A stretch of DNA of 64,000 nucleotides from Squalus acanthias (Eukaryota), in assembly GCA_030390025.1 (NCBI GenBank), contig CM059431.1, forward strand, positions 118,236,001-118,300,000, given 5' to 3'. Below, piece after piece: positions 14,566-57,274 of the stretch (position 1 is the first letter of the stretch; the number at the start of each line of letters is the position of its first letter). The notes under the pieces were generated by a model. It worked only from the letters and a program-made list of their open reading frames with translations. It was not told the origin of the DNA and did not search any database. Made by a program: the position numbers and the translations under genes.

Positions 14566-14569
14566 GAAA

Positions 14570-16393: not shown

Positions 16394-18970
16394 CTAGAGC
16401 CCGCGCAGCCCGTCTACCTGTGTCCGCTCAGCTATGATGCGTGGAAAAGACCCCTGGTGGAGATGGAGGTAGAGAAGCAGAAGGGTAGTTATTTGTTGGA
16501 CACGGGAGCTTCATGCACCGTGATTCATACGGATAGCCCCTTTGACTCACCACTGTCTACCAAGGTCCCATTCACATTAGCGGGGTTCACGGGAAAAGAG
16601 CAGGCTGGCGCATTCTCCATTCCGCTCTCCATTCATTTAGGAGCACTCCACACCACATGGAAGTGCATACTGATGAAATGGCAAGAGGGGGGTGGCAGAG
16701 GTATCCTCGGATCGGATCTCCTATCGGAACACGGGATCCTCGTGGACCTTAGGAATCACTGTCTCTGGGGAGCCAAGGGTGGAAAAGGCAAGGTAGTTGT
16801 AATCCCGGGGAAGGAAGGTAAAGGGGCCCTGTGTACCATGAAGCCAACCGGAGGTTACGACGTCGGGCTTATGGTCGCGGATGTCCCAACGGACATGCAA
16901 ACGTATGTGTCAGATAATATGCACGCGTTTGCAACCCACAAGCACGATTGTGGGAGGGTTACCGGGTTTGAGGTCAGCATAGACGGGGACCCCATGACCC
17001 GGCCCCAAAAGCAGTATAACTTCCCCAAAGAAGCAGAACCCGACATGGAGACAGCAATGTCCTCATTGGTGCAGCAGGGCGTGTTGAGGCCGATAGCCAC
17101 ACACGTGAACTCCCCATTATGGCCGGTAAGGAAGCCGGATAATTCGTAGAGGGCCACGGTGGACTACAGAGTCCTTAACAGTAACATTCCCGCCTGCGCG
17201 CCCACAGTAGCAGCAGTTGCTGACCTAATAGGGAGTTTCCCAGCATCCACGACCACATTCACGGTGCTGGATATCTCGAACGGTTTTTGGTCCATCCCGC
17301 TGCGGCGAGAGGACCAGTACAAGTTTGCCTTTACTTTTAAAGGACAACAGTACACATGGAACTGTTTGCCACAGGGTTTCCACAACAGCCCCAGTATTTT
17401 CCATCAGTGTATGGCAGGAAGTTTAAAGGAGTTTAGTCAGCCCAATCAGATAGTGCAGTACGTGGATGATTTGCTCCTGTTCACGGACTCAAGGGAGGAG
17501 CATGGACCACTGCTAGCCGAGTTATTGGAGCTGCTAGCGAGAAAGGGTTTTAAAGTGAACCCTAAGAAAGCACGTATCGGTCAGCAGGAAGTAAAATTCC
17601 TGGGTCTGACCATTCGCGCTGGGGAAAGAGCCATAGATAAGGCTAGGAGGGAGTCGGTGCAGGAGTTACCGATTCCCAACACCATAACGGGTGTGAGGTC
17701 CTTTCTGGGACTGACCGGTTACTGTAGAGACTTCATCGAGGACTATGCGGCCACAGCAGCTCCGCTGCTCCGACTCCTCTATAAGGGAGTGGAGTGGTCT
17801 TGGGACGAGGGTTGTCAGGCAGCATTCGAGAAGTTAAAAGGGGATCTGCAGACCGTGCCAGCTTTAGGGGCCATAGATGGGGGGAAGGAGTTTTTCCTGG
17901 AGGTAGCTGCCAGCGGAGACAGCTTGAGCGCTGTGCTGCTCCAAGAGCGTCACGGCAAGCTGAGGCCGGTTGTCTATTCGTCCAGGGTGTTAACGGATGT
18001 GGAGAGGAGTTTTTCCAACTGCGAAAGGCATCTCTTAGCCACGCATTGGGCTGTGAAAAGATCAGCGATCTTCACAGGGCTCTCTCCCATCACTCTCCTC
18101 ACCCATCACACACCAACTTAGATGCTTCTAGATGGGAGGATTAAGGATGGGACCGTAAGCAGCGCTCGTATTGCGTGCTGGACCCTTCTCCTTTCCCAGA
18201 TGGATCTTAGAGTTAAAGGTCTTTGCGAGCCCAAGCTCGCGGCCAACTTGGTATACGCCGGAACAGCCCACTAGTGTTCGGTGGAAGGGGTGTGGGAGGT
18301 CAACATAGGTTTGCGGGCCGGGATACATCCCACAGGTCGCGAGATTTATGTTGATGGTTCCAGCACAGTGTCCGCTGGTGAACAACTCACAGGGTGTGGA
18401 GTTTATGACCCTGCGGCAAACCTTGTCCTGGCAATTAAACTCCCCAGCACCATGAGCGCACAGCAGGCTGAGCTGTCTGCGGTGGCGTACGTCGTTACCC
18501 ACCCAGAAATCTTCCCAACCCCATACACGATTTGTTCGGACAGTATGTTTACGTGCAATTCGTGTACGGAATACCTGGCCATTTGGTCCCGCCGTGGCTA
18601 CACCTCCGCGGACGGGCGACCTTTAACGGTGAAGCCCTTGCTGGAAAAGATCCTAGCAGCAGTAGGGGAGGAAGGGGAGATTTTCTTCCATAAGGTGAAG
18701 GCTCACTCCTCCACAGAGCCCCGCGGGGAGGGCAACCAGCAGGCGGATGCGCTAGCCAGGGACGGTGCCCGTAACGGCATTTTCTGGGACCCCTATGGAC
18801 CCGGACCAGTGGCAGCGATCCAAGGCAGGGAAGGGAATCCCGGGAACACCAGGATAGCACTGCCCCTAGACCTTAAGACCATCCAGAGCCAGGATCCCGC
18901 CCTAAAAGCAGTTCTCAGAACGATTACTGAGGGCAAGCAGGTAGAGGGCCCGTACAGTACGGCAACCCTC
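16394..18970 (+). pseudogene. pol: pro-pol: protease, RT, degenerate RNase H (tether), RNase H; three nonsense codons; truncated before the integrase core
   Basis: Same frame as gag. Motifs LLDTGAS, LDISNGF, LPQGFHNSP, YVDD, and IYVDGSS/AQQAEL/SDS/KVKAH/GNQQADALA. TAG at 17147, 18119 and 18272. Confidence 0.92.
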
Positions 18971-20447
18971 TCCAGAATTACAGTGGGCAGACAAGATGGC
19001 GTCGAATATACATTTTAGTATAAGATTGGATCATACTCGGTAAACACTGATAAAGACAGGATGCAACCTGTTTGCATTTGGAACAATAGCAAAGATATAA
19101 GTGCTGGAATCGTTTTCCCATGCACAAGTAAGGATCATTGTACTGGGCAATCGAAGGCCCATCCAGACACATCAATACACAAATAACACCTGGCTCTACA
19201 ATGAGAGAGACATTGACGGGTGATTAAGCAAGCATTCGGGGGCCCCCAAAACCAGTCAGGGAGACGATTCGTACACATCCTGGCTGGGTCAACAATGGGG
19301 AAAACATTAACGGGTAGTTGGCCAGTTTCAGGTGCTACCGAAACCCGTTAAACAGAAGAATCGCCCCATGCTGGGAGTTTTGAGCGCCAAATATTACACA
19401 AAGGACAAACATTAAGATTTGAGCGGGAGATAAGGGAACACAGCACTATAACTATAGTGAACAAATGTCCATCGCTCTCTTATTCCCTTGACTCGCTCGA
19501 TCGCTGGCTGAAGCTCTTCCTTAGGGCTGGACTTTGTTGACTTTTTGACTCTTAGCCATACTGGTCGGTTATTCGAATGTTGGGTGGAGCTCAATCGGAA
19601 CGAGCTGCCCCGACAAGAGCAAGTAACAGGGTGCACCATCCCGAGTATCGGTAAATGGTGTCTGGACCCGGAGGCCCGAAGAGACGAGACGAGATGAGAG
19701 GAAGAGGAGAAGAATCCACGTGCCGCCGCGGTCAGTAAACCCCGACCGCGCCCCAAAATATAAATAAAGAACTTTTCATTGAAGTCTACCGACAACCGGT
19801 GTCGAGCACAGGAAGACTCTTCTTTGAATTTTACAAACGTTTCCGAGTTCTGTCGAGTTCTTCATGACAACAGGGAGCCTGGCCTGCTTGTCGCAGCAGC
19901 GAAAATAAAACAAGTGGGGTACAGAGACCCTTCCAAACACGTGACAGTCAGGCGCTGCAGCGAAACGAGCCGAGTGCCTCACTTTAAAATTCTCCGAAGT
20001 AACACGAGTGGTGAGCATGTTTTACGATCCTACAAATCTAGACATAGTGTAGGTATTGTTAAGGGAGGGTGGTTATTAAGGCTAAGAGATTATGTGTTCC
20101 CCTTTTTACGATGTGCCGTGCGTTCTTCATTTCCATAGACCAAGCTTTATGAATGTATGTATACTTGTACTATCGTTAATTTGCGCCTATGACATGTACT
20201 TCATGATCTTGGATGCTATGCAATAAAGATTTCCATTTCATACTATTCAACCGGGTCTATTTGAGTTTTCTCTGCATTACTGCTAAGTCCAGTGTTAGAA
20301 CCGTAAGGGCGAGTGGGTCGAACCACTCACAGGTGCTTATTGCAAAAGGGCTGGCCGGAGACCAGAGCAAGCAATAGTATTAGGCAACGAAGGCCTAACC
20401 TCGCACCAGCACCGTCTCTGAGCGACACGGTTCCCGAAACCCTTTCA
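18971..20447 (+). repeat. 3' LTR of provirus A, lacking its first ~142 bp
   Basis: Matches the 5' LTR from 13085 onward. Ends CCCTTTCA followed by the TSD. Confidence 0.92.
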
Positions 20448-35091: not shown

Positions 35092-36773
35092 TGTAGAATT
35101 CGCAAAATTATCACGATTTTATAAATAAGAAGGAGACATATAGTTTCGTACAAACAGCTTTATTTCAGCAGAATGCTGTCAGGTTTTCAAAGTGGACACA
35201 AACAGCCTGTAAAATGGCCGCCACGCCTCGTGGCAGAACGTTCTAGACTTTCAATGAGCAGACAAGATGGCGTTCCAATAAACATTTATGCGAGATCGTA
35301 CAAGACTCAGCACATTTGAGATAATTGACAAGACATAATGGGTTTGCATTTTATACATAAATACTGGAATAAGTCTCCCAGGTGCGAATAAGGGCTATTG
35401 TACCGAGCGATCAAGAACCCATCCAAAGACATTAATATGCAAAATCCCCACGACTCTACGATGAGAGAGCCGTTTGCGGGTAGTTACAGAAAACATTTGG
35501 AAGCCCCAAAACCCCTCCAGGGAGAATACTGGCCGGTTACACAATGGGAGAAATATTAACGGGTACTCAGACAGTTACAAGTATCACCGAAACCCATTAA
35601 ACGGAGATCACCCTATACAAGAAGTTTGAGCGCCAAAACCCTGACAAAAGAAAGACATTAAGATTGGGCGGGAAAAGAGGAATTACAGCACTATAACTGT
35701 AAGGTAGAACCGTCCATCTGTCTCTTGCCTCTTGACTCTTGCCTCTTGACTCTTGCCTCTTGACTCTTGCTCTTGCCGCCTGACTCCTTGCCGCTTGCCT
35801 CGTGCCTCTGCCTCTTGCTGTTTGACTTGCTGGAAGACTATTGAACTTTCTGATCCGCCAGGATCAACCTCGTGGCTTGCCGCGAAGATCTGTGAAGAAC
35901 TGGGCTGTGAAGCCTTGAAGTGGGCACACCATCCCGAGAAGTCGGTAAACGGTGTTGGAACCGAAGGCCCGAGATGAGATGAGATGAGATGAGATGAGAT
36001 GAGATGAGATGAGAAGAGAAGAAGACGACAATACGTATCGCCACGGTCAGTAAGCCCCGACCGCGCCTATAAGTCGAATAAACACTTCCTTGCCCAGGAA
36101 GACCATTCTTTGAGTTTTACAAACTGGTGAGGGCACAGGAAGACTATTTTTTTGAGTCGTGTCGGAACTCCGAGGACAACACAGATCTTCATGACAGCAG
36201 ACGGTCCAGCCTGCTAGCCGGAGCAGAGACGAGTAAACAAGTGGGGTACAGAGACCCCTGATCAACACGTGGGTGGTCAGGTGCTGCAGGAAAAACATCC
36301 GAGCAGAGTTTCGGAATTCTCCGAGTTATCACGAGTGGTGAGCATGAGTCTCGATCCTACAAATCTAGTTTAGGACAGGTATTGATAGGGGAGGGTTTGA
36401 GTTTTAAGGATAATTGTAATGTGTGCCCCCTTTTTCGATGTGTCGTGCGCTCCTCGTTTCCCTAAAATTAGTTACATAACTGCGTGTAAGATTGTACTGT
36501 CATTAATCTGTGCTTATGACATGTATTTCGTAATCTTGAATAATATGCAATAAAGAATTTCCATTTTGCACTATTCAACCGGGTCTACCTGAGTTTTCTC
36601 TGCATTATTGCTCTCGCACCTAAGTCCAGTGTCAGAACCATAAGGGCGAGTGGGTCGAACCACTCACAGGTGTCTAGTGTTACCAGGCTGGCTGGAGACC
36701 AGAACAGGCAACAGGGCCTAACCTCGCACTAGCACCCAGGCTAAGCACAGAGCCACAGGTCTCACCCCTTACA
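35092..36773 (+). repeat. 5' LTR of provirus B
   Basis: TGTAG...CTTACA. TATAA at 35692, AATAAA at 36549, with internal (CTCTTGM)n and (GAGAT)n tracts. Confidence 0.93.
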
Positions 36774-36778
36774 GAAAA

Positions 36779-36796
36779 TGGCGACCGCGGCAGGAC
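36779..36796 (+). promoter_or_regulatory. Primer binding site, tRNA-Arg(TCG)-like (provirus B)
   Basis: TGGCGACCGCGGCAGGAC, separated from the LTR end by the 5-nt spacer GAAAA. Confidence 0.85.
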
Positions 36797-36817
36797 ACTG
36801 GCAGCGAAAAAAAAAAT

Positions 36818-38584
36818 GTGTTAGACCCTGGTATGAATGGGCGAAATGTCATGGAAGAGAGAATAGCAGATTATGTGTTTGGAAAAGTGAATTTGACCAA
36901 GAAATGGATAAGTGACCTGCTGGTGGATAAGCGTCCACTAGAGGCAGCCGAGAGGTGGACAGATAGCAAGGAACATAAAAAAACAGTGGAGAAAGCGGTC
37001 TGGCTGATGTGCTATAAAAGACAAGTCCAAATTTCGGACCAGGTCATCTTAGCGCAGGCAGCTCAGATCAAGAGTTTAGAGGTGGAAATGGACGAGAAGG
37101 TCGCGGGGGGGCAGCAGCTCATCGCGACTTTAAATGCGTTGCATCAAGAACGCCAGTTAGTCGCCAACCACCATGAGGCAAAAATAGATTACCTCGAGTG
37201 CCAGGTCACTGAGGCAAAGTTAAATGAGGGCAGATTAAAGGAACGATGTGCCCGCCTAGCTGCCCAAATAAAAGTCCAGGAAGAGAGCTTAACGGGGGTT
37301 AGGGCGGCATATAAGATGGCCCTCGAGGATAAATTTCAGGGGGCCGATCACAGCGTCTGCCAAAAAGAGATAGGGAACCTTAAAGAGGCCCTGAACAAAG
37401 CGCACGGCATGGTGTGCCTTATCAGCCCGTCCGCACATCAGCCGCTAGTAGATGAGGGATTTCAGAAATCCCCACCGAACAAAGCAGAGGAAGTATTAGC
37501 CACTGTGCCCTCCGCGCCACCCAGCTATTCGGCAACCTGGGTGAGGAAGGAAGTGGTAGAAGTAGAGAAAGAGCCCACTGAGGTAGAAGTGAAGCCGGGA
37601 CCGTTGTGTCCGGTCACGGGTATCAAGAGGGGCTCGAACGGAGCAGGTGGGGAAGAGGGGGATCTCCTCAACCAGCTTGTGTTGCCTCACAGCTCACACC
37701 AGCTGAGGGTTATGATAAGTCACGTACGGAAGCTGGCCGAGTCAGACGACCCTTCCGTACATTTCAGGGAAATAGAGCAAACCGCAGCCATTAACGGCTG
37801 CGACGATGGGGAAAAAGCAAAAATGCTGTTATTCTCATTAGACAGCTCGATCCTTCAGTGTCTCTCAGACGAGAGCAAGAGGGGAACTAATACCTATGGG
37901 GAGCTAAGAGATGAGGTCCTAGAAGTGTTGGGAATGGACGATGAAGGTCCGTTCGTTAGATTGGGACGAACAGTGCAGATGGAGGGAGAACCCCCGAAGG
38001 TTTTCGCCGACAGGCTGTGGCCAGTATACCAGCGTAGCTGCCCAGGCGCGCCAGCGCGTCGCCGCATAGACGGCGCCAGTTTAAATCATTGGCTCAGGTG
38101 TATAGTAACCAACAGTTTGCCAGCTGTCAGGGAGCAGGCAAAAGCGTGGTTTGATCCCACTAACCCCGCCACTACAGAAGAGTCGGTCCTAAATCGACTC
38201 ACGGTAGGGTACCGTAATACCAGGAGTACGGGAGCACATCCCCTTAAGGGAAAGGTGCATGAGGCGCGGCCCGCAGCCCCGGCTCAAAAGGAATGGCATC
38301 AGGAGGGTAACCGCGCCCCGCAGGCCAGTAATGCTTGTTACGGGTGTGGGAAGACAGGGCATTGGCGCAAGAACTGCAGGAACCCTTGGAAGGAGTCCAG
38401 GGATAAAAATCCCGCAGTCCGAGCCCAGGCGCCTGTCTCCGATAGGGGAGCTAGTGCACCTATCCATCCCGATGCGATCGAATCAGTGTTGGGAGCCATG
38501 CGCACCCTCATGATTTCGCATGGAAGGGTGGCAGTTGCTACCGGCCCCGCAGATGCCGCAGCCCCGTCCAATAGTACCCATTGA
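36818..38584 (+). CDS. gag: Gag polyprotein, provirus B
   Basis: Colinear homolog of A gag with PSAPPSY and CYGCGKTGHWRKNC. The ATG at 36778 is put out of frame by an A10 run; in-frame ATGs occur downstream. Confidence 0.9.
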   Translation: MLDPGMNGRNVMEERIADYVFGKVNLTKKWISDLLVDKRPLEAAERWTDSKEHKKTVEKAVWLMCYKRQVQISDQVILAQAAQIKSLEVEMDEKVAGGQQLIATLNALHQERQLVANHHEAKIDYLECQVTEAKLNEGRLKERCARLAAQIKVQEESLTGVRAAYKMALEDKFQGADHSVCQKEIGNLKEALNKAHGMVCLISPSAHQPLVDEGFQKSPPNKAEEVLATVPSAPPSYSATWVRKEVVEVEKEPTEVEVKPGPLCPVTGIKRGSNGAGGEEGDLLNQLVLPHSSHQLRVMISHVRKLAESDDPSVHFREIEQTAAINGCDDGEKAKMLLFSLDSSILQCLSDESKRGTNTYGELRDEVLEVLGMDDEGPFVRLGRTVQMEGEPPKVFADRLWPVYQRSCPGAPARRRIDGASLNHWLRCIVTNSLPAVREQAKAWFDPTNPATTEESVLNRLTVGYRNTRSTGAHPLKGKVHEARPAAPAQKEWHQEGNRAPQASNACYGCGKTGHWRKNCRNPWKESRDKNPAVRAQAPVSDRGASAPIHPDAIESVLGAMRTLMISHGRVAVATGPADAAAPSNSTH

Positions 38585-39703
38585 CTAGAGCCCACGCAGC
38601 CTGCCTACCTGTGTCCTTTTAAAAGACACGCACAGGAGGGGGTCTCCGGTAGGGAGGCCAGGTTAGTAGAGCAGGCCTTGCGGGAGGAGAACGCCCGTTT
38701 AATAAGGAAAGTAGACGGGCTAGAAGGACAGCTTAGAGAGCAGGCCCTGCGGGAGGAGAACGCCCGCTTAATGGGAAAGTTAGACGTGCTCATGCTAGAA
38801 GCACAGCTTAGAGAGATAAAGGCAGCCTAGAGGGTAGCCAGAAGCAGGGAGTATGAGGATTTAAATCAGTGCAAACTGTATAAGCCAGGTGCACAAGGGC
38901 CTACCTCAGGGGCCAAACCTGCGAGTGGGGACTCGCAGCCCCAGGTAGGGCCACAGGGCACACAGGCAGGCAAAGCAGCTTGCATCAGGGGAGAGGACAT
39001 CCTAGAAAAATGTAGGATCTTTTATTGGGGTTGGGAGTCAGATGAGGAAGAGTTCGAGGAGCTCGACGAAGATAGTGACACAAGCGAGGAGGAGCTGGAA
39101 TCGGAGGACGAAAGGGTCGCCCCCGATTCAAGTATAGGGGGGACAGGGGCTGCAGATAGAGATCCACAAAGGGTGGAGGCCGAAGCTGCAGGTCACGAAC
39201 GCAGGGGGGCGGAGCTAGGGGAGGCGGAGCCAGCCGCTGTGGTGGGACCACAGGGCGTGGCGATGGAAGCCTCAGAGCCCGAGCCGCCCGGCTTGAACGT
39301 CTTGCCCTCGAGGGAGGTAGGGACTGCGAGTGAAGGGCCGCCTACTGGGCCAAGTAGGGCGGTGACACAAGCTGCAGATCCCGAGTTCAGGGAGGCGGAG
39401 TCAAGGGAGGCAGAGCCAGCGACTGTGGTGGGACCACAGGTCGCCACGGTGGAAGTCTCGGAATCCGGTCCGTCGGTCCTGAAGTTCCTGCCCCCGGTAG
39501 CTCTCCGTAGGTCAAGTCGGACACCCCAGCCCAGGAAGATATGGTCAAGTCCCCAGAGTGTCCCAAGGCGTAGGTTCAAGGCTAAGGCAGCCCAGGGAGA
39601 GCCCAGTCACAGCGCAGCAGCAACAGGCTGCGGCAGATCAAAGGGAGGGGTCAATGCCCTCCCACCGTTGGGAGAAGCCTGCGGCAGCAACCGCAGAATT
39701 TGA
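38585..39703 (+). pseudogene. ORF-X (coiled-coil + acidic/Pro-rich), in frame with gag, one internal TAG at 38828
   Basis: Manual translation from the gag stop is open except for TAG at 38828 (Tyr in C). Homologous to ORF-X of provirus C. Confidence 0.75.
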
Positions 39704-40011
39704 GTAGGCCGCCCTGGGAACGGGCGGCGCTGTACAGTGATAAGTTTAGGATGAGCTTATAAGTTTATAGTTTTAAATCAGGTTATAAGTTTATAGTTTT
39801 AAATCGGGTTAAGTCGGTAGTTTAATTTTGTTTAACAGAAAGAGGTAAAATGATGGGAGTTTTTTTAGAGATAGGAATAGTTAAAGTCTATCCAGCGCAC
39901 ATGTCTTCTTACGTGAGGCGAGGTCAGGGGACCCGCTCACCCTTCACAAAAGCCAGAGACTCTTGGGAGGCTGGCTACCTCATTCTATCTGATCACAGGA
40001 ACCAAGGAAGG

Positions 40012-42342
40012 ATGGAACGAATTCTAGTATTGCTCGCGGCAATCGGATGTGGATTGGCCTATCGAGGCCGCACCAAGGATGTTGTGGTGTTTGGATGCTC
40101 CGGGGACACGGCCCCCATCGCGGTGGATGGGACCGGAAGGCGAGAGGCTGAGGAGACCACCACCTATTTCCACAAGGGAAGGTGGCCAGGATGGCTGGGA
40201 ACAAATTCAACAGAGTATTCCAGTACATCGGGTTTTGCCTACAAGAGACTTCTTCAATGTGCCCCAAAGTAAGGATCATTGCACCCAGAGTCAGCGTCAC
40301 CGTCGGCAAGCGAATTTGTTTGACTTGTAATGGGAATGTCCCATTGAGCCGATGGTGGTGGCTACGAAAGCTGAGCAAAAACATGAGGAACTCTTCGGTC
40401 GAGTGGGAGCGACTGGGTAATAATACCCATCGGACAATTACGGGGACAAACGGACAAGTGAGAGTCTGTTGGGACAAATGGTGGGAACCGGATGAGGGAA
40501 TTTATGTATGTATGTGGGGGTCAAAGTACGTTTGCCCCAAAGGCATCTCCATATTTTTCATCAATCAATGGCAGGATAACGGACAGGGGATGAGGTGGGA
40601 TGCGAGCACCAGGGGGTGCGGAGCCCCATACTCCCCGATCCCGGTAAATGCCACTGAACTCATTACGCGCCCACGCAAAGCCCCGCCCACGATTCCGGTG
40701 GTTCTAGCTAAGGAAGAAGGCTGCCCTAAAACCAGTAAAGGACCTGGGAATGGTTTGGTACTGGTCCCCACAGACCAGATACAATTTCAGGGGGTACATT
40801 ACGCGGTGGCCTCGGTGATTTTAAATCTCACCGAGGTGCGGTTACCAGAGTGGTGCCCCAAAAAGACGGAACAGTTATATCAGGTCCTGTTGACCAAGAT
40901 GTTTAGACAATTTTATGAGTTTGATTTCGCGGAAATTGATAAAACAAGTTTGTACACCGCACCACATGAAGTTTTGGATCAGGTGGGGAGACAAAGAGTG
41001 GGGGGTTGTGAACGACGTGTTCACTGCTTTCAATACAGGTACATCTGTGGTCAACGCTCTAGACAGCGTGGAGCTGCAGACCCAGATTAATGGCTTAAAA
41101 ACGCAATTAAAAAGCATTCTCACAGATGAAAATAAGGTGGTTGGGTTTGGGTTACACGAGGACCAGGCCATGACTCTCCATTTAAAAGAAATAAAAGCCG
41201 AACTAGAGAAACATGCGCGTACGGTAAATGCCCTGATTAGGGAAGATCGGAATGCGTCCGATCAGGCTGCGCAGAATGAGGTGTGCGTGCTTTACGGGGC
41301 GTGGTTACTGGGCGAGGGCCGCAGTAATTTGGAGGATTTAAAACAAGGTTTGGTCCCGTCCTGGATAAGTAACAAACACCTGCAGGCGCTCCACCCTTTT
41401 TAGAACGCATTAAGCCCGTGCCAGCTCAGGCTAGCTTCAGAAGCATACCCAGTCCCCGTGGACTGTGGACGATCAAACCATACTATGCCGGTTTTGAGCG
41501 ACACAACAAAGCCCGCCCCGGTGTATCGGGTAGAGAACATTGATGTCATTCAGGGGGGAGCCCACATTCGCTATGCAGCGGTTCCACCTTACGTCATCCG
41601 CTGGGAGCAAACGATGACAGGTACAGATCTCTCTGGTTGTCGTGGCCGGGGAGCACACATAATACTGTGTCCCCAGCACTTGAATGCCTTTTTAACACCA
41701 CAGTGTGGGTTCAGATCGGCTGGCGCCAAGCCCATGAATTGCACCATGGAGGCAATGGCACAAGATCATGTGCCTCCGCAGGTAGCATACATCGGGGGTG
41801 GACCATATTGTGTTACCACTGCAGCGCAACACTACCAACATGGAAACCGTAGCCGGTGTCCGGTGAGTGACAGCAGTTTCTGTTTCAAACCCAGGGCGGA
41901 AGTTCAAGTAGCACAACAGCGAATTGTCCCAATCCCTGAACCATCCACGGTTCATCTTACCGTAAAAGAGAACTTCACCGACCTGCAGCGATTCGTCACG
42001 CATTTCGGATACCTCATTCCCCCTCTCCCTGAACACCTCACCAAGCTTTTGAAAGCCGTCGCGGTATCGCAAAAACATTTTTACACCCTAGAACAAAAGA
42101 CTGTCGAGATAGGGACAGAAATTCTGGACATAGTAATTCCACCGTGGTGGAATCTGTTCACCAACATTGAAGTGCCTTCCTGGATTAGAATAGCCTCCCA
42201 CATTTTAGTTGTATGCCAAGTGTTTATTGTGATATACTTATTGGTCGTGCATTGTAAGAGAGGCAAACGCCTCACCAAGAACGAAAACACGGGAGAGTGG
42301 CGAGAACGTTACATGCGCGTGCACGATGAAAGCACCGTGTAA
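40012..42342 (+). pseudogene. env: Envelope glycoprotein (signal peptide, Ig-like domain, class I fusion-like subunit, TM), disrupted
   Basis: MERILVLLAAIGCGLA, DEGIYVC, heptad repeat and TM WIRIASHILVVCQVFIVIYLLVV. Frame changes at ~40265 and ~41000, stop at 41401. Confidence 0.85.
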
Positions 42343-45418: not shown

Positions 45419-47769
45419 TTACACGGTGCTTTCATCGTGCACGCGCACGTAACGTTCTCGCCACTCTCCCATGTTTTCGTTCTTGGTGAGGCGTTTGCCT
45501 CTCTTACAATGCACGACCAATAAGTATATCACAATAAACACTTGGCATACTACTAAAATGTGGGAGGCTATCCTAATCCAGGAAGGCACTTCAATGTTGG
45601 TGAACAGATTCCACCACGGTGGAATTACTATGTCCAGAATTTCTGTCCCTATCTCGACAGTCTTTTGTTCTAGGGTGTAAAAATGTTTTTGCGATACCGC
45701 GACGGCTTTCAAAAGCTTGGTGAGGTGTTCAGGGAGAGGGGGAATGAGGTATCCGAAATGCGCGACGAATCGCTGCAGGTCGGTGAAGTTCTCTTTTACG
45801 GTAAGATGAACCGTGGATGGTTCAGGGATTGGGACAATTCGCTGTTGTGCTACTTGAACTTCCGCCCTGGGTTTGAAACAGAAACTGCTGTCACTCACCG
45901 GACACCGGCTACGGTTTCCATGTTGGTAGTGTTGCGCTGCAGTGGTAACACAATATGTTCCACCCCCGATGTATGCTACCTGCGGAGGCACATGATCTTG
46001 TGCCATTGCCTCCATGGTGCAATTCATGGGCTTGGCGCCAGCCGTTCTGAACCCGCACTGTGGTGTTAAAAAGGCATTCAAGTGCTGGGGACACAGTATT
46101 ATGTGTGCTCCCCGGCCACGACAACCAGAGAGATCTGTACCTGTCATCGTTTGCTCCCAGCGGATGACGTAAGGTGGAACCGCTGCATAGCGAATGTGGG
46201 CTCCCCCCTGAATGACACCAATGTTCTCTACCCGATACACCGGGGCGGGCTTTGTTGTGTCGCTCAAAACCGGCATACGTAATACTATACCCATGATAGT
46301 ATGGTTTGATCGTCCACAGTCCACGGGGACTGGGTATGCTTCTGAAGCTAGCCTGAGCTGGCACGGGCTTAATGTGTTCTGAAAAGGGTGGAGCGCCTGC
46401 AGGTGTTTGTTACTTATCCAGGACGGGACCAAACCTTGTTTTAAATCCTCCAAATTACTGCGGCCCTCGCCCAGTAACCACGCCCCGTAAAGCACGCACA
46501 CCTCATTCTGCGCAGCCTGATCGGACGCATTCCGATCTTCCCTAATCAGGGCATTTACCGTACGCGCGTGTTTCTCCAGCTCAGCTATTATTTCTTTTAA
46601 ATGGAGAGTCATGGCCTGGTCCTCATGTAACCCAGACCCAACCACCTTATTTTCATCTGTGAGAATGCTTTTTAATTGCGTTTTTAAGCCATTAATCTGG
46701 GTCTGCAGCTCCACGCTGTCTAGAGCGTTGACCACAGATGTACCTGTGTTGAAAGCAGTGAACACGTCGTTCACAACACCCCTTCTTTGCCTCCCCACCT
46801 GATCCAAAACTTCATGTGGTGCGGTGTACAAACTTGTTTTATCAATTTCCGCGAAATCGAACTCATAAAATTGTCTGAACATCTTGGTCAACAGGACCTG
46901 ATATAACTATTCCGTCTTTTTGGGGCACCACTCTGGTAACCGCACCTCGGTGAGATTTAAAATCACCGAGGCCACCGCGTAATGTACCCCCTGAAATAGT
47001 ATCTGGTCTGTGGGGACCAGTACCAAACCATTCCCGGGTCCCTTACTGGTTTTAGGGCACCCTTCTTCCTTAGCTAGAACCACCGGAATCGTGGGCGGGG
47101 CTTTGCATGGGCGCGTAATGAGTTCAGTGGCATTTACCGGGATCGGGGAGTATGGGGCTCCGCACCCCCTGGTGCTCGCATCCCACCTCATCCCCTGTCC
47201 GTTATCCTGCCATTGATTGATGAAAAATATGGAGATGCCTTTGGGGCAAACGTACTTTGACCCCCACATGCATACATAAATTCCCTCATCCGGTTCCCAC
47301 CATTTGTCCCAACAGACTCTCACTTGTCCGTTTGTCCCCGTAATTGTCCGATGGGTATTATTACCCAGTCGCTCCCACTCGACCGAAGAGTTCCTCATGT
47401 TTTTGCTCAGCTTTTGTAGCCACCACCATCGGCTCAATGGGACATTCCCATTACAAGTCAAACAAATCCGTTTGCTGACGGTGACGCTGACTCTGGGTGC
47501 GATGATCCTTACTTTGGGGCACATTAAAGAAGTCTCTTGTAGGCAAAACCCGATGTACTGGAATACTCTGTTGAATTCGTTCCCAGCCATCCTGGCCACC
47601 TTCCCTTGTGGAAATAGGTGGTGGTCTCCTCAGCCTCTCGCCTTCCGGTCCCATCCACCGCGATGGGGGCCGTGTCCCCGGAGCATCCAAACACCACGAC
47701 ATCCTTGGTGTGGCCTCGATAGGCCAATCCACATCCGATTGCCGCGAGCAATACTAGAATTCGTTCCAT
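45419..47769 (-). pseudogene. env: Envelope glycoprotein of provirus C; C-terminal 490 aa (furin site to tail) open
   Basis: RQRR/GVVNDVFTAFNTGTSVV, heptad repeat, Cys-rich ectodomain and TM. Stops at 47524 and 46907, frame change at ~47512. Confidence 0.88.
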
Positions 47770-51018: not shown

Positions 51019-52788
51019 TTTCTATAAGGGTTTTGACACGCCTGTGGCTCTGTGCTTAGCCTGGGTGCTAGTGCGAGGTTAGGCCTTGTTGCCTGTTCTG
51101 GTCTCCAGCCAGCCTGGTAGCACTAGACACCTGTGAGTGGTTCGACCCACTCGCCCTTACGGTTCTGACACTGGACTTAGATGCGAGAGCAATAATGCAG
51201 AGAAAACTCAGGTAGACCCGGTTGAATAGTGCGAAATGGAAAATCTTTATTGCATATTATTCAAGATTACAAAATACATGTCATAAGCACAGATTAATGA
51301 CAGTACAATCTTACACGCAGTTGTGTAACTAATTTTAGGGAAACGAGGAGCGCACAACACATCGTAAAAGGGGGCACACATTACAATTATCCTTAAAACT
51401 TAAATCCTCCCCTATCAATACCTGTCCTAAACTAGATTTGTAGGATCGAGACTCTTCCTCACCACTCGTGATAACTCAGAGAATTCCGAAACTCTGCTCG
51501 GATGTTTTTACCGCAGCACCTGACTATCCACGTGTTGATCAGGGGTCTCTGTACCCCACTTGTTTACTCGTTTCTGCTCCGGCTAGCAGGTTGGACCGTC
51601 TGCTGTCATGAAGATCTGTGTTGTCCTCGGAGTTCCGACACGACTCGAAAAATAGTCTTCCTGTGCCCTCGCCCCGATGCGATAAAACTCGAAGAATGGT
51701 CTTCCTGTGCCCTCACGCCAGTTTGTAAAACTCAAAGAATAGTCTTCCTGGGCAAGGAAAGTGTTTATTCGACCTACAGGCGCGGTCGGGGCTTACTGAC
51801 CGTGGCGATACGTATGGTCGTCTTCTTCTCTTCTCATCTCATCTCATCTCGGGCCTTCGGTTCCAACACCGTTTACCGACTTCTCGGGATGGTGTGCCCG
51901 TTTCAAGGCTTCACAGCCCAGTTCCACACAGATCTTCGCGGCAAGCCACAAGGTTGATCCTGGCGGATCAGAAAGTTCTAAAGTCTTCTAGCAAGTCGAG
52001 CAGCAAGAGGCAGAGACAGCAGTCAAGAGTCAAGAGCAAGAGAAAGATGGACGGTTGTACCTTACAGTTATAGTGCTGTAATTCCTCTTTTCCCGCCCAA
52101 TCTTAATGTCTTTTCTTTTGTCAGAGTTTTGGCGCTCAAACTTCTTGTATAGGGTGATCTCCGTTTTAATGGGTTTCGGTGATACTTGTAACTGCCTGAG
52201 TACCCGTTAATACTTCTCCCATTGTGTAACCGGCCAGTATTCTCCCTGGAGGGGTTTTGGGGCTTCCAAATGTTTCTGTAACTACCCGCAAACGGCTCTC
52301 TCATCGTAGAGTCGTGGGGATTTTGCATATTAATGTCTTTGGATGGGTTCTTGATCGCTCGGTACAATAGCCCTTATTCGCACCTGGGAGACCGATTCCA
52401 GTATTTATGTGTAAAATGCAAACCCATTGGGGTAGAAATTAGGTCGCGCCCCATTTGGGGCGCAAATATCGTCCGGACGCAAATATTAGCGCCTGGCGCT
52501 AATTATCGGCACTGACAGGAAACTTCACTTTTACCGCCCCGGGAGGTGAGTGGAGCGCTAAAGTAGGCGCTGCACACCTCTCTGAAGGCGCAAAGGCCAA
52601 GGAGTGAGGCGCTAACTCAGCGCACGAGCGCAGCGCAGCTGCTGCCAGTTAGCGAGGGAACACAGACACAATGGCGCTGGACACTTCTTAAAGCGGGGGG
52701 GGGGGCCACTTGCTCCCCAGCCACACCCTGCTCATTGCAGCCTTGAATCTCAGCCTGGAGAGACCTGTAATCCATTTTGCTGCCAAGC

Positions 52789-54667
52789 ATGGAGAGGGTG
52801 AGAGAACGCGCTCATCGCTTCACCGAGCGGGCCTTGGATGCTCTGGTTGACGCAGTGGAGCGCAGACGTTGCATGCTGTTCCCGGAGAGTGGCAGGAGGC
52901 CTTTGCCACGCGATTTCAGAAGAGTGTGGAGGGAGGTGGCTCAGAGCGTCTCCTCCAGGAGCATGGTGCCCAGGACCCATGTTCAATGCCGCAAAAAGTT
53001 CAACGACCTCACTCGGGTCGTATGGGTGAGTGGCTTTTTCTCAATACCTCTCCATCCCTCCATCTCAACCTCACTCTATGGCCAGAGGGTCTTAAAACCC
53101 CAATGCACAACACTCATCCAACACCTATGGCCCTTTCATCAAACACACACACACACATTCCACACTTTGCATACAGTAAGGGCTATTCACCTATGGGAGG
53201 CACATCAGGCAAGACCATGGCTGCATACAGTAAGGGCTATTCACCTATGGGAGGCACATCAGGCAAGACCATGGCTGCATACAGTATGGGCTATTCACCT
53301 ATGGGAGGCACATCAGGCAAGACCATGGCTGTATATTTACTCAGATGCTGTCCTTTTTCTTGCAGGCTGAGCTGGCTCATAATCGGAGACAGCAGCAACG
53401 GACGGATGGAGGGCGGCTTCAGCTGCAACCCCTCAGCGATCTGGAGGAGCGCGTCCACAGGATTGTGGCAAGCCGGGTGATCGGTCCCGTCGCCACTGGA
53501 GATGCCGACCCCGTTGTGGACAGCAATGGTAAGGTCATCACCTTTTTGTCCTCTGTCCTTCCACTTGTCCTTCACAATACCAGCCTTTGACACTTTCAAT
53601 CCAACTTGCTAACTCACTGCACTTATTCCTCCCTTACTGCCACCCTGTCCTCACGCTAAAGCCACTCTTGTACCTCCCTGCTTTCAGATGGTGATTCACC
53701 AGCTGAGGAGACGGGCCCTGAAGCTGCCACTGGGAGTGATGCTGCAGCTGAGGAGGAAGAGGAAGCCGGAGCATCAGTGCCACCCTCTCCCGAGGAAGCC
53801 CATGCCCACACTGGGAACACGCCTTCCCCGGAGGGGAGCAGGGGGGAAGGGGCTGATGATGGTGAAGCTCCAGGACCCAGCGGGCTGCAGCAACGCCATG
53901 GGGGGGGTAGGGAAGAACGGGGGCCTTCTCCCCAGAGGGAGAGTATGCCAGACACTCCTACTGCAATGGACGCAGAGGAGGAGCGGCTGATTGCAGAAAT
54001 GAACACCCAGGCGGTGGGCATGCACACTGAGCTCATGGGTGCAGTGGGAAGGGTGCCCGATTGCATTGAGTCACTGGCAAGGAGTGTGGAGCACTTCGCT
54101 GTAGCACAGGCGGATGCCACACTAACGCTTAGTGCTGCAATTCAGTCAATGGCTGCCGTGATCCCACCTCTGACTGCTCTCATACAGACTCAGATGGAGG
54201 CCACGCGAGCACAGACTGCTGCCAACCTCGATGGTTCGTGCACATGTCCCCGGGGCTGTCACCGCGCCGCAGCAGGCCAGCAATCTGTTCTCCGGCAAAT
54301 TGCTCCGGATGCTGAAGTGCTGCCCCGTGGGAGTGCCAGTGTGTCGGGCGAGCAGGGAGTTGCTGGCCTCTCTCACGATGACAGCATTCCTGCTGCCAAC
54401 ACTGTCACTTCTCCACTGCACTTGCCACCGCCTGTAGGACAGACTGCTGCCGCCCATGCAGAGTTGGTGCAGTCTGCAGCCGGGCCCTCCAGGCCCAGAA
54501 GTGGTCGAGGCCGTCCTTCAGGGGCATCTGCAGTGTCAGGGTCTGACGAGCAGCAGCCTTCCACCAGCCATGCTGCAGCCACTGAGGTCCCATTACGGAG
54601 GAGCAGTAGGGTTAGAAGGGGGGAAGTGCGCAAGGGAAGGAGATCACCCTCGAAAGGCAAAAAGTAG
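52789..54667 (+). CDS. Myb/SANT-like DNA-binding protein of H2; predicted exons 52789-53025, 53366-53528, 53688-54667 (~459 aa)
   Basis: MERVRERAHRFTERALDALVDAVERRR..WREVA..QCRKKFNDL. GT-AG introns with compatible phases give an uninterrupted frame. Confidence 0.82.
53169..53330. repeat. 54-bp tandem repeat, 3 copies, in intron 1 of the H2 Myb gene
   Basis: GCATACAGTAAGGGCTATTCACCTATGGGAGGCACATCAGGCAAGACCATGGCT repeated head to tail. Confidence 0.9.
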
Positions 54668-54680
54668 GAGGTGTGCCAAA

Positions 54681-55047
54681 ATAAGAACATAAGAACATAA
54701 GAAATAGGAGCAGGAGTAGGCCAATCGGCCCCTCGAGCCTGCTCCGCCATTCAATAAGATCATGGCTGATCTGATCCTAACCGCCAATCTACTATCTATC
54801 ACAGAACCATCTCCTGCATCTAACAGAATTGCACACACGAAATAGGAGCAGAATCAGGCTACACAGTCCCTGGGCCCGCTCCACTACCCACAGGGCCATG
54901 ACCGATCCGAACCTAGACTCATGTCCAAATTCCTGCCCGCTCCCCGTAACCCTTAATGCCCTTTACTTCTAGGAAACTGTCTATTTCTGTTTTAAATTTA
55001 ATTAATGTTGTAGCTTCTACAGCTTTTTGTGGCAGCATATTCCATGG
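54681..55047 (-). mobile_element. CR1-type LINE 3' end inserted between the two H2 genes
   Basis: (ATAAGAAC)n tail and the AGGAGCAGGAGTAGGCC 3' UTR, as at 5831 and 59870. Confidence 0.85.
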
Positions 55048-55342
55048 ACCTACCATGGAATATGCTGGTCATTTTTTTATTAAAGGCCGAGGTTCATGGT
55101 CCAACTTTTGTTTAGTGTTTTGGACATTATCTCCAGGTTGTGAGAACCAGTTATGTTATTGACTGTTTTTTTGTGTTTATTTCTATGAGTTTGTCATGAG
55201 GAATTGACACACACAGAGTTTGTAAAATAAATAAGTTTCTGTATTCAAAATATACATGGCTGGTGGTTGGAATTATTGGTGCCTTGGCCGGCTTAGGGGT
55301 TGCGTGCTGGGTTGATTAGTGTTTGTAGCAATGGCAGGGGCC

Positions 55343-56431
55343 CTAGAAGCGGCTTGCTATTAGTCGTTGACGGACGGCCCTTGCAGTTTGACCATTGTGG
55401 GCTGCCCTCCTGCCTTGGTGCTGCTGATGATCATCGTCCTCGTCCTGTTCCTCCTCTTCCTCCTCCTCCTGTGGTGGTGCTACAAGGCCTGGTGGCATTG
55501 GCTGGGTCCTGAGGATTGCCATGTTGTGCAACATGCAGCACACGACTACGAAGTTCGAAACTTGCTCAGGCGAGTACTGCAGGGCTCCTCTGGAATGGTC
55601 CAGACAGCAGAACCGTTGTTTCAGCATGCCGATTGTGCGCTCAATAATGTTCCTGGTTGCTTGATGGCTTTCATTGTACCGCAGCTCAGCAGGGGTGTTT
55701 GGCGTACGGAGCGGTGTCATCAGCCAGGTGCTCAATGCGTACCCCTTGTCCCCCAGAAGCCAACCAACTGGCTGATGCGGTGCCTCGAAAACTTCTGCCA
55801 CAGTAGTCTGGCGCAGGATGAAAGCATCGTGGCAGCTGCCCGGATAGTGGGCATTGACAGCGAGTATCACCTGTCTGTGGTCACAGACCAACTGCACATT
55901 CAAGGAATGGAACCCCTTTCTGTTCCTGAATTCCTCTGCATTCTCTCGCGGAGCACGCAAAGCCACATGCGTGCAGTCAATGGCGCCCTGCACCATGGGG
56001 AAGCCCGCTACCCTCGCAAAGCCCAGAGCACGGTCCCGCTGCTTGTCTGGGGTCATAGGGAAAGAGATGAAGTCTCGTCTCCTTCTGAAGAGGGCATTGG
56101 TGACCTGCCGGATGCAGCGATGCACCGCAAACTGGGAGATATTGGCGAGGTCCCCAACAGCAGCTTGGAATGAGCCAGTGGCGTAGAAGTTCAAAGCCAC
56201 TGTGACCTTCACTGCCACCGACAGAGACGTCCTGGACCTCAGCTGAGGCTGCAGATCTGGCTGCAGCAGGTGGCAGAGCTCAGTGACCACCTCCTTGCTG
56301 AATCGCAGCCTTCGCAAACACAGCTCCTCGGACATATGGATGTAGGAGAGCTGTTCACGATATACCCTGGGAGGGTAAGCTCTCCTGTACATGCGCCTGA
56401 TGGCCCTCCTCCGTCTGGCCATCATTGCCAC
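55343..56431 (-). CDS. HARBI1-like DDE transposase of H2 (362 aa)
   Basis: GAIDCTH / LLGDKGY / RNIIERTIGMLKQRF carry the full D-D-E triad. An upstream in-frame ATG (56503) is cut off by one TAG (56465-56467). Confidence 0.93.
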   Translation of the reverse strand: MAMMARRRRAIRRMYRRAYPPRVYREQLSYIHMSEELCLRRLRFSKEVVTELCHLLQPDLQPQLRSRTSLSVAVKVTVALNFYATGSFQAAVGDLANISQFAVHRCIRQVTNALFRRRRDFISFPMTPDKQRDRALGFARVAGFPMVQGAIDCTHVALRAPRENAEEFRNRKGFHSLNVQLVCDHRQVILAVNAHYPGSCHDAFILRQTTVAEVFEAPHQPVGWLLGDKGYALSTWLMTPLRTPNTPAELRYNESHQATRNIIERTIGMLKQRFCCLDHSRGALQYSPEQVSNFVVVCCMLHNMAILRTQPMPPGLVAPPQEEEEEEEQDEDDDHQQHQGRRAAHNGQTARAVRQRLIASRF

Positions 56432-57274
56432 TCTCTGTCTGCGTCTCAGTATCCTCCGATTCAGCTAGAGCAGGACGACGCCCCCAATCATTGCAGCCCC
56501 CATATTCTCTTTGCCAGAAAAGTAATGAGGTACAGCAACTAAAGTAGCAACAAAGTTAGGATGAACTAGGCAAAACTACCTCACAAAGCGTTGAGTCAAT
56601 GTAGAAGTCTCTCTCTCTCTCTCTCCGAATCTCTCTCTCTCTCTCAGAACGAGTGGTGCATAAATGTCGACCACAGAAAAAGAAAGACAGGAAGAGGCCC
56701 CCTTTAAATAGCGCCCCCCCCCAGCCCCACACCGATTGATAACGTTCCAGTCTTCCGGTCGTTGGAAGCGCCAGGCGGTAAGGCAGGGGGCGCCACTCAA
56801 TTTCCGCTCCGGGGCGCCCCAAGGGCGTTGCACCATGGAATGACGTCACAATCTGCGCGCGCAGGTGGTCGCAGCGGTAAGTTTTAGCGCCGCCGCACAA
56901 TCTCAAGTTAAGTTCTCGAGCGGCGCAAACAGCGCTGCGCCCGGGCGTTAGCGGCTTAACGCCCCATTAGCGCCCTCTTAAGGCGCTAACGGGAGGCGCA
57001 ACCAAGTGAATTTTTACCCCATTATGTCTTGTGAATTATCTCAAATGTGCTGAGTCTTGTCCGATCTCGCACAAATGTTTATTGGAACGCCATCTTGTCT
57101 GCTTATCGAAAAGTCTAGAATGTTCTGCCACGAGGCGTGGCGGCCATTTTACAGGCTGCTTGTGTCCACTTTGAAAACCTGACAGCATTCTGCTGAAATA
57201 AAGCTGTTTGTACGAAACTATATGTCTCCTCCTTATTATATAAAATTGCGATAATATTGCGAATTCTACACACC

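Follow-up and report, generated by a model that had tools for sequence, protein, structure and literature searches.

A predicted Ig-like domain N-terminal to an F-type fusion core in an endogenous retroviral Env of Squalus acanthias

Introduction

The window analyzed here is a stretch of 64,000 nucleotides from the Squalus acanthias genome (contig CM059431.1, positions 118,236,001 to 118,300,000), and it contains two copies, B and C, of an endogenous retroviral env gene. The locus raises the question of whether this Env joins an Ig-superfamily domain to a fusion machinery of the F type, as had been predicted from the DNA sequence, and, if it does, where such a domain came from and what it would do for the virus. 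In the available text of the lokiretrovirus survey (Wang & Han 2020; PMC7947760), the Env of lokiretroviruses is reported to resemble the F proteins of Mononegavirales; 0 of 6 cartilaginous-fish genomes were positive for these viruses, as opposed to 4 of 6 genomes of frogs (Anura).

Results

The env copies of the window and their provirus family

The env gene comes from a family of endogenous retroviruses present in great abundance in the 3.7 Gb genome. In copy C it lies on the minus strand and runs from the start of the signal peptide at 47769 down to 45419, and its DNA is 98.8% identical (2322/2351) to that of L010, a naturally open copy. At codon ~77 both window copies show the same one-base difference in length (~47539 in C, ~40242 in B), and an in-frame TAG at codon 288 is private to copy C. 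Copy B has two further length differences, of one base at ~40998 and of 21 bases at ~41484, and its Ig-like part (40266-40535) is unbroken. As a result of the frame change, the TAG and the further indels, the env genes of both window copies are dead; elsewhere in the genome, many copies carry an open version of this gene. The residue numbering given below refers to the naturally open copy, which was used in place of a consensus Env built from B and C. The features are as follows.

40012-42342, plus strand: env of copy B, 97.9% identical (2281/2330) to the open copy
45419-47769, minus strand: env of copy C (open copies have 783 codons), with the frame change near 47539 and the TAG at 46909-46907
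47713-47769, minus strand: signal peptide MERILVLLAAIGCGLAYRG, residues 1-19; a hydrophobic N-terminus is also present in relatives P0007, P0012 and P0016
47516-47712, minus strand: N-terminal segment, residues 20-85, pLDDT <50 in both models; holds the ~47539 frame change
47246-47515, minus strand: predicted Ig-like beta-sandwich, residues 86-175, with B-strand RICLTC, C-strand RWWWL and F-strand DEGIYVC
47066-47245, minus strand: Cys-/Pro-rich linker, residues 176-235, with an N-glycosylation sequon
46793-47065, minus strand: F2-equivalent core, residues 236-326, strands and helix of the predicted F-like head; holds the TAG
46781-46792, minus strand: furin-type site RQRR, residues 327-330
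46706-46780, minus strand: fusion peptide region beginning GVVNDVFTAFNTGTSVVNALD, residues 331-355, kept in relatives
46439-46705, minus strand: heptad-repeat A (HRA), long central helix, residues 356-444 (model helices 346-375 and 382-444)
45818-46438, minus strand: beta- and Cys-rich head, equivalent to F domains I and II, residues 445-651, pLDDT mostly 80-95
45638-45733, minus strand: heptad-repeat B (HRB) helix, residues 680-711, from the model
45506-45580, minus strand: TM helix, residues 731-755, from the Kyte-Doolittle peak and model helix 730-765
45419-45505, minus strand: cytoplasmic tail and stop codon, residues 756-783

All of the motifs listed in the original prediction are present, though on the minus strand. 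Thus PRVSVTVSKRICLTC, the RWWW cluster and DEGIYVC are found in the translation of copy C env, as are the heptad repeats and the TM helix, the latter marked by the single Kyte-Doolittle peak above 1.6 in Env, at residue 734. About 65 residues separate the signal peptide from the Ig-like part, a segment that did not figure in that prediction.

A pol-bearing copy of the provirus matches RVP, RVT_1, RT_RNaseH_2, RNase_H, Integrase_H2C2 and rve, the two RNase H matches representing a tether and a second RNase H, and in at least six places the distance from the RNase H match to the env downstream of it is ~2.4 kb. Lokiretroviruses resemble this family in that Pol here has the tether and the second RNase H and in that relatives of its Env are found in frogs. 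A dual RNase H in a gag-pol-env provirus bounded by LTRs, as seen here, is common to canonical retroviruses, however, and is therefore not discriminating for lokiretroviruses; in comparison with PDB entries, Pol matches Ty3 (5e-71), XMRV/MLV RT (2e-67) and foamy virus PR-RT (2e-61) about equally well. Copies B and C are without PR-RT-RNase H-IN and are therefore members of a pol-deleted subfamily. Between gag and env, both of these copies contain an 'ORFx' that has no Pfam match and no homolog of near length in a word-indexed search. We considered and rejected the idea that it is a captured gene, as it is what remains of the pol frame, its 3' tail, after a deletion of 3.6 kb. The provirus carries gag, pol and env only, with no gene for a separate attachment protein.

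The C-terminal part of Env resembles F proteins

At 46792-46706 the basic site RQRR (46792-46781) immediately precedes the hydrophobic fusion peptide GVVNDVFTAFNTGTSVV, and at the aligned cleavage place relatives carry basic R/K motifs of their own (RHRR, RKRR, RSKR, VSKR and RKLK). The full-length structural model predicts a three-domain, beta-rich head (DI-DIII) into which the strands of the N-subunit are integrated, together with HRA, HRB and a C-terminal TM helix; across residues 241-300, in the F2-equivalent core, pLDDT is 86-95. The best structural matches of Env are all F-type proteins. With Foldseek and VIA the alignments to F extend from model residue 243-245, which corresponds in most F matches to chain residues 23-38, near the start of mature F, to about residue 651. 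With the F proteins of paramyxoviruses and pneumoviruses (PDB 6apb, 1ztm, 3maw, 2b9b), Env shares the head fold, the furin-type site and fusion peptide, HRA, HRB and the TM helix, at a sequence identity of 7-15%. The N-termini differ, in that the F2 strands of F start just past the signal peptide, whereas Env has ~220 extra N-terminal residues, including the Ig-like domain. Among predicted structures, an F-like core was also matched (E 1.7e-15 to 1e-9) in walleye epsilonretrovirus Env (BFVD Q9WHI8, A4GTG3), baculovirus F and the glycoproteins of arli-, lispi- and chuviruses, proteins whose lengths are far off (~530-1320 residues) and which were compared over the core.

Neither PF00523 (Fusion_gly) nor PF12259 (Baculo_F) matches this Env at E≤10, the C half of Env found 0 matches among PDB sequences with phmmer, and in Pfam the N half from the window had no match and the C half had only DUF6360, at E 0.15. 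A relative, P0036, matches Baculo_F with E 0.0011, which is under the cut-off. Lokiretrovirus Env, in contrast, matched PF00523 at E 2.2e-7 according to the available text of PMC7947760. Like this Env, it has a signal peptide, a basic cleavage site, a fusion peptide, a coiled coil and a TM helix.

These data also bear on the possibility that the gene is simply an ordinary retroviral env of the gamma or beta type. There is no CX6CC in Env, the sole CxxC being the CLTC within the Ig B strand, and none of the best structural matches departs from the F type. A gamma-type Env was rejected for these reasons, in keeping with the original prediction that gamma-type features are absent, and we attach virtually no probability to an ordinary gamma- or beta-type env.

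Evidence for an Ig-like domain in the N-terminal part

The residues that form the Ig signature are C106, W115-117 and D161-E-G-I-Y-V-C167, with C106-C167 as the canonical Cys pair. Two patterns, both of them picked after the sequence had been seen, were used to ask how readily such a signature arises. When the 311-residue N-subunit was shuffled 5000 times, the strict motif C-x7-20-W-x30-75-D-x-G-x-Y-x-C turned up in one shuffle; among 5000 shuffles of the whole protein it turned up in three. For the loose pattern C..W..GxxxC the count was 1257 of 5000 shuffles, and because of this it carries no weight by itself. In comparisons with known families, no Pfam Ig family matched this Env or its relatives at its curated cut-off. 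Ig_3 aligned with residues 85-167 at E 0.16 (12.9 bits, under the cut-off of 30), and at the equivalent place P0016 matched Ig_3 at E 0.0085 (17 bits) and P0032 matched V-set at E 0.045 (14.4 bits).

Profile-profile comparison gave a mixed result. When an alignment of eight family sequences was compared by hhalign with 24 host Ig_3 domains, it reached a probability of 91.7% (E 7.7e-7, 70 columns) in the canonical B/C/F-strand register of Ig, although the env segments had been cut with an Ig-style regular expression, which favors an Ig result. None of 100 column-shuffled alignments reached the score of 37.2 (the best was 20.5), and the reversed alignment scored 9.3. Taken singly, this Env scored 75.3% and P0032 90.3%, as against 4.7% for four shark and ray sequences, 8.8% for two frog sequences and 1.6% for P0013 alone, and the family value is carried in part by P0032. 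In a sliding-window scan of Env by hhalign, values above 9% were obtained only in windows overlapping residues 76-223. A host-Ig HMM applied to single sequences gave this Env E 0.53, with 0.4 for the best reversed decoy, and a profile of the N-part alignment had chance-level matches only (WTAP, a lysozyme) in PDB. The nearest clusters in the ESM Atlas were mostly Ig families, with scores of 0.80-0.81 that serve as a lead only. As a whole, the support that sequence comparison lends to an Ig assignment is moderate.

In the full-length model, residues 86-175 are predicted to form a two-sheet beta-sandwich with Ig topology, and in a structural search with this part the matches formed a plateau, made up of Ig domains, that reached to rank 50, with VIA Z values of at most 8.2. 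When the N-part (231 residues) was modeled by itself in AlphaFold, from a 14-row alignment, the pLDDT was 39.6, and this model was kept out of the fold searches. Being unusable, it leaves the Ig assignment dependent on a moderately confident stretch of a single full-length model. We propose an Ig-like fold at residues 86-175 with moderate confidence.

Several of these results would be expected if the N-terminal region were instead a lineage-specific receptor-binding domain, a generic beta-sandwich or a modeling artefact, its resemblance to Ig being convergent or due to chance. They are the Pfam Ig matches, all of them under threshold, the low pLDDT of the N-part model, the poor showing of three of the five hhalign sub-alignments, the HMM value that does not surpass its best decoy and the VIA Z scores. 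Such an explanation is harder to reconcile with the agreement of independent methods on one stretch of 90 residues and on one strand register, with the rarity of the strict motif in shuffles of the N-subunit and with structural matches that form a plateau of Ig domains, and we consider it unlikely, albeit the most serious competitor. An Ig-like beta-sandwich N-terminal to an F-like class I fusogen, as originally predicted, is thus supported by the predicted structure and by the structural matches: an Ig sandwich is predicted and the C-terminal part matches F proteins.

Relatives of Env and the origin of the Ig-like module

Beyond Squalus, the N-terminal pattern recurs in relatives of this Env, at 18-26% overall identity, that come from other sharks, from a skate and from three species of frog. 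The loose Ig pattern was present in 8 of 11 relatives tested; P0011 (Mustelus asterias) is without the pattern and P0032 without the Cys pair. The homolog from Chiloscyllium punctatum, P0013, is named 'Ig-like domain-containing protein' in UniRef. An exhaustive phmmer search of 1.84 billion representatives found 48 proteins at E≤0.001, and the six that matched over the N-part all carry an env-like N-part, which in one gene model is fused to zinc fingers. No host Ig donor was among the 48, in a library of a size in which weak similarity to a host protein would miss significance. A word-indexed search with the family alignment recovered only 11 proteins and no new distant relatives.

Domains of the Ig superfamily that bear this signature are typically found in animal genes, and their acquisition by viruses is known. 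It is conceivable that this particular virus lineage captured the Ig module of a host gene relatively recently; the original prediction, in which the module may be a captured host domain, called for a search for the closest host Ig domain. That search identified none, since not one of the 48 phmmer proteins is a host Ig protein matched through the module. Moreover, the module occupies the same place in the Env of several sharks, of the skate and of the three frog species, and between this genome and the skate its conservation is close to that of the F2 core (65 of 90 identical residues in the Ig part, 67 of 91 in the F2 core and 60 of 69 in the fusion peptide and HRA). A recent capture is accordingly very improbable. 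The presence of the N-terminal pattern in distant Env relatives argues for an old family feature, and, together with the lack of a host Ig match, it implies that any capture was ancient, with a donor that is untraceable here.

Discussion

A proposed role for the Ig-like module

We consider it likely that this Env is a class I fusogen with the fold of paramyxovirus and pneumovirus F, carrying an N-terminal extension of ~220 residues that is centered on one Ig-like sandwich (residues 86-175), and that this sandwich is a receptor-binding or triggering element. In such a scheme the Env precursor would trimerize and then be cut at RQRR, while the F2-like strands would hold the N-subunit locked in the head. 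The Ig-like module would remain outside, where it could bind a receptor or act as the trigger, a role that in paramyxoviruses belongs to a separate attachment protein. Upon triggering, HRA would extend, the fusion peptide would insert and HRB would zip into a six-helix bundle. The F of paramyxoviruses pairs with its attachment protein, whereas the provirus described here encodes none, and the Ig-like domain at the front end of Env probably binds the host cell.

Viral Ig-like proteins are known to serve in immune evasion or mimicry. A real Ig-like module might serve this purpose, or cell adhesion, instead of receptor binding and the triggering of fusion. Such a role seems improbable, as the module is situated within the fusogen's own N-subunit in a provirus that has no attachment protein gene, and as the F scaffold takes up receptor-binding modules. 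According to the available text of a study of foamy virus Env (Fernandez et al. 2024, PMC11468914), the F fold is a minimal scaffold that accepts such modules at its N-terminus or between its subunits. The original prediction had named receptor binding and immune mimicry side by side, and of these two we infer that receptor binding would be the role of the module.

Foamy virus Env itself, gp130 (PDB 8rm0/8rm1; PMC11468914), also has an F-like fold. Its receptor-binding domain is described in the same text as a previously unidentified fold, formed by a nested, continuous stretch with linkers to domain III on either side. The module reported here, in contrast, is Ig-like and precedes the F2-like core, and the long leader peptide of foamy Env is absent. 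The coronavirus spike resembles Env in having receptor-binding modules N-terminal to an F-related fusion core (available text of PMC11468914); it differs in the nature of these modules and in being a far larger protein. Torovirus and coronavirus S proteins were among the matches to predicted structures.

Implications

A literature search found no published description of an Ig-like domain combined with an F-type retroviral Env, and the word 'immunoglobulin' is absent from the available text of the lokiretrovirus paper (PMC7947760). We regard as evenly balanced the broader proposition that a retrovirus lineage of sharks, rays and frogs uses a true Ig-superfamily domain as a receptor-binding module before an F-type core, which would be the first to be described in a retroviral Env and would place lokiretrovirus-like viruses in cartilaginous fishes, in a lineage that appears young and highly abundant here and has kept many env frames open. 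The host gene map is unchanged by these results, the two window copies being dead insertions. For the virus family, the results suggest that F-type (loki-like) retroviruses have a wider range of hosts than has been published. The conserved Ig-like module provides a concrete candidate for the receptor-binding part of an F-like retroviral Env. If this assignment is true, it would represent a third way to arm a minimal F scaffold, beside the inserted receptor-binding domain of foamy viruses and the N-terminal domains of coronaviruses, and a case of modular evolution that links retroviral, mononegaviral and baculoviral fusogens.

Proviral organization and copy number

Comparison of the window with itself revealed a three-level nest of insertions, the parts of which are listed here together with the env genes.

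Features of the nested proviruses
35089-58430, + strand: provirus B, from window self-comparison
57270→43315, - strand: provirus C, within the 3' LTR of B
52429-57017: 4.6 kb DDE_Tnp_4 (Harbinger/PIF-like) transposon, within the 5' LTR of C
55343-56464, - strand: transposase ORF of the DDE_Tnp_4 element
36722-40150 (B) and 51021-47770 (C): gag-to-env stretch in the pol-deleted layout, present also at L013+L010, loci elsewhere in the genome
38831-39703, + strand (B) and 49212-48067, - strand (C): Pol C-terminal tail
40012-42342, + strand: env of B, with a frame change common to C and two more length differences
47769-45419, - strand: env of C
46792-46781, - strand: furin-type site RQRR in the env translation of C

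The LTR halves of C are 98.5% alike over 1407 bases and those of B are 98.0-98.3% alike. Neither copy has protease, RT, RNase H or integrase; measured against the pol-bearing copy at locus L020, they have lost 3.6 kb, and gag is fused to the final ~280 pol-frame codons. The occurrence of this layout in a third copy (L013+L010) suggests an amplified pol-less subfamily that retains gag and env. This 3.7 Gb genome contains the ERV family in great abundance. A search with the N-terminal part of env returned 7684 first-look candidates, 150 of which were scored and showed 91-100% identity, most of them (this is not an exact tally) in open frames of ~780-860 codons. At six or more sites, env and RNase H matches share a strand, with env ~2.4 kb downstream, indicating gag-pol-env proviruses.

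Past the SH3-like domain of integrase, the C-terminal tail of Pol continues for ~280-380 residues as a coiled-coil and then an acidic Pro-rich stretch, for which there was no Pfam match and no homolog in a word-indexed search. Two 1.48 kb repeats, 96.7% alike, enclose gag, PR, RT, tether and RNase H in a further copy, A (13085-20444, + strand), which is without integrase or env; its gag has 80% nucleotide identity to that of B. Because an extra RT fragment (12008-12874) adjoins it just upstream, copy A may belong to a related subfamily, as a tandem or recombined provirus.

The env gene

The env gene of copy C is read downward on the minus strand from 47769 and opens with the signal peptide MERILVLLAAIGCGLAYRG. 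There is a frame change at ~47539; the frame resumes at 47629/47590 up to a TAG at 46909-46907, beyond which it is unchanged down to the stop at 45421-45419. After the frameshift the product comprises 723 residues (TAG as X) and contains PRVSVTVSKRICLTC, RWWW, DEGIYVC, GVVNDVFTAFNTGTSVV and one hydrophobic anchor. All the env motifs named in the original prediction, RQRR included, were recovered on this strand, and a motif search of the translation confirmed that CX6CC is absent. As the reference for numbering and folding we used the open env at locus L010, a natural sequence that is neither a consensus nor repaired, with 783 codons from the signal-peptide Met. Copy C has 98.8% DNA identity to it, and 691 of 706 residues are identical past the frame change.

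An F-type fusogen in the C-terminal part

The AlphaFold model of this natural Env was built from a 41-row alignment and has a mean pLDDT of 62.9, with values mostly of 80-95 at residues 241-300 and 431-640. A Foldseek search of the PDB yielded 248 matches with E<=0.001; all the matches listed are paramyxo- or pneumovirus F, with postfusion RSV F (1.3e-11) and hPIV3 F at the top, in agreement with the F-protein-like fusogen that had been proposed downstream of the Ig part. Model residues 243-245 align with approximately residues 23-38 of most F chains, so that everything before residue ~240 is an N-terminal addition with respect to F. At the sequence level, neither PF00523 nor Baculo_F in Pfam matched this Env, and the best match of the family profile among PDB sequences was foamy virus gp130 (E 0.033). 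Among predicted viral structures, the best matches were arthropod mononegavirus glycoproteins, walleye epsilonretrovirus Env, baculovirus F, paramyxovirus F0 and feline foamy virus gp130. The walleye models in BFVD, Q9WHI8 and A4GTG3, match at E 1.7e-12 and 1.9e-10, and from this similarity between models F-type cores may occur in a third retroviral group besides the foamy and loki-type ones.

A probable Ig-like domain in the N-terminal part

In the full-length model, residues 91-170 form six strands, with pLDDT values of 51-83 in 10-residue blocks, six of eight being at least 66; folded alone, the N-terminal part reached a pLDDT of 39.6. To rank 50, the structural matches of the Ig-like part were by title antibody or TCR variable domains or I-set domains (basigin/CD147, embigin, titin, Dscam, NCAM2, CD79b, BARF1), except for one titin FnIII entry and four complexes in which the chain was unclear from the title. 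Pfam Ig_3 on residues 85-167 gave E 0.16, and the equivalent region of two relatives gave Ig_3 at 0.0085 and V-set at 0.045, all below the cut-offs. When the N-subunit was shuffled 5000 times, the strict Ig motif arose once.

We also set an alignment of 24 Ig_3 domains of the host genome against one of eight sequences covering the Env region. With Env segments cut by an Ig-style regex, the loose form of which is met in a quarter of shuffles, hhalign gave a probability of 91.7% (E 7.7e-7) over 70 columns in the canonical register. Across 100 column shuffles the highest score was 20.5, against 37.2 for the real alignment; the reversed alignment scored 9.3, and sliding 98-residue windows of Env exceeded 9% only when they overlapped residues 76-223. 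Sub-alignments fell to 4.7% (four sharks/rays), 8.8% (two frogs) and 1.6% (P0013, from Chiloscyllium punctatum); as single sequences, P0032, a relative without the Cys pair, gave 90.3% and this Env 75.3%. A host-Ig HMM run on single sequences gave E 0.53 for this Env and 0.4 for the best reversed decoy. The predicted order, an Ig-like part before an F-like fusogen, is upheld. We regard an Ig-like fold as likely, and lean with less assurance towards true Ig-superfamily homology.

Relatives and age of the module

When 1.84 billion representatives were searched exhaustively with phmmer, 48 proteins matched at E<=0.001. Relatives with a named source come from a skate (Rhinoraja longicauda), sharks (Pristiophorus japonicus, Mustelus asterias, Chiloscyllium punctatum, Scyliorhinus torazame) and frogs (Pelodytes ibericus, Mantella aurantiaca, Xenopus tropicalis). 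Full-length distant relatives have 18-26% identity, and their phmmer alignments start at query residue ~161-177, past the Ig-like part. In some public shark gene models (P0004, P0010, P0012, P0036), pieces of this env are joined to host genes of Niban-1-like, cadherin, ZFP2-like zinc finger and F-box type, likely as annotation artefacts from ERV insertions.

The module pattern, G-x-x-[IV]-x-[IVL]-x-C ... W ... [DE/S]-x-G-x-x-x-C, is found in shark, ray and frog relatives at a constant position, just ahead of the conserved CP...GP..GL that opens the F2-like core. Of 11 relatives examined with a loose regex, 8 matched, the exceptions being P0030 (truncated), P0032 and P0011. The UniRef title of P0013 is 'Ig-like domain-containing protein'. 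Between this genome and the skate, 65 of 90 residues are identical in the Ig part, which is thus about as conserved as the F2 core (67 of 91) and less so than the fusion peptide plus HRA (60 of 69). Since the pattern recurs at the same place in these groups, the module is an old family feature that was sometimes replaced. Full-length P0011, from Mustelus asterias, has the conserved F2-like core and F1 with a different Cys-rich N-terminal part that is without the Ig pattern, which suggests that the N-terminal module may be swappable. Read as a recent event, the capture from the host that was originally suggested is wrong or unproven: the module is shared by shark, ray and frog relatives, and the 48 hits included no host donor.

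Classification

Pol of the L020 copy comprises PR, RT, an RNase-H-like tether, RNase H and integrase. In the window (16393/16394) as in L020 (5063/5064), gag and pol share one frame with a single stop between them, which is the read-through expression layout of gamma- and epsilonretroviruses. In comparison with solved structures, Pol resembles the Ty3, XMRV/MLV and foamy virus enzymes to about the same degree. These features would fit a deep-branching, lokiretrovirus-like position, as a statement of similarity and not of phylogeny.

Lokiretroviruses are described as having F-like Envs with similarity to PF00523 (PMC7947760), whereas the present Env has no such match, and the accessible text of that paper does not mention immunoglobulin. 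Its supplement, as available, records positive results for 4 of 6 frog genomes and for none of 6 from cartilaginous fishes. C. punctatum and S. torazame were among the genomes screened, and relatives of the present Env are annotated in both (P0013 and P0009) despite that result. In the accessible portions of the literature on lokiretroviruses, ERV envelopes with an Ig-like domain, foamy and F-like Env, and cartilaginous-fish ERVs (including PMC7947760, PMC9040795, an errantivirus preprint, PMC11468914, PMC13709493, PMC10072453, PMC8922424 and PMC12440569), we came across no account of a retroviral Env of the F type that bears an Ig-like module.

A proposed mechanism of entry

As a whole, Env probably acts in the following way. 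The precursor would be cleaved at RQRR, with the F2-like strands holding the N-subunit within the head, and the exposed Ig-like module would bind a cell-surface partner. HRA, the fusion peptide and HRB would then work as in other class I fusogens. This scheme agrees with a paper on foamy virus Env that views the F fold as a minimal scaffold taking receptor-binding modules N-terminally or between subunits (PMC11468914). One protein would thereby supply what paramyxoviruses divide between the attachment protein and F.
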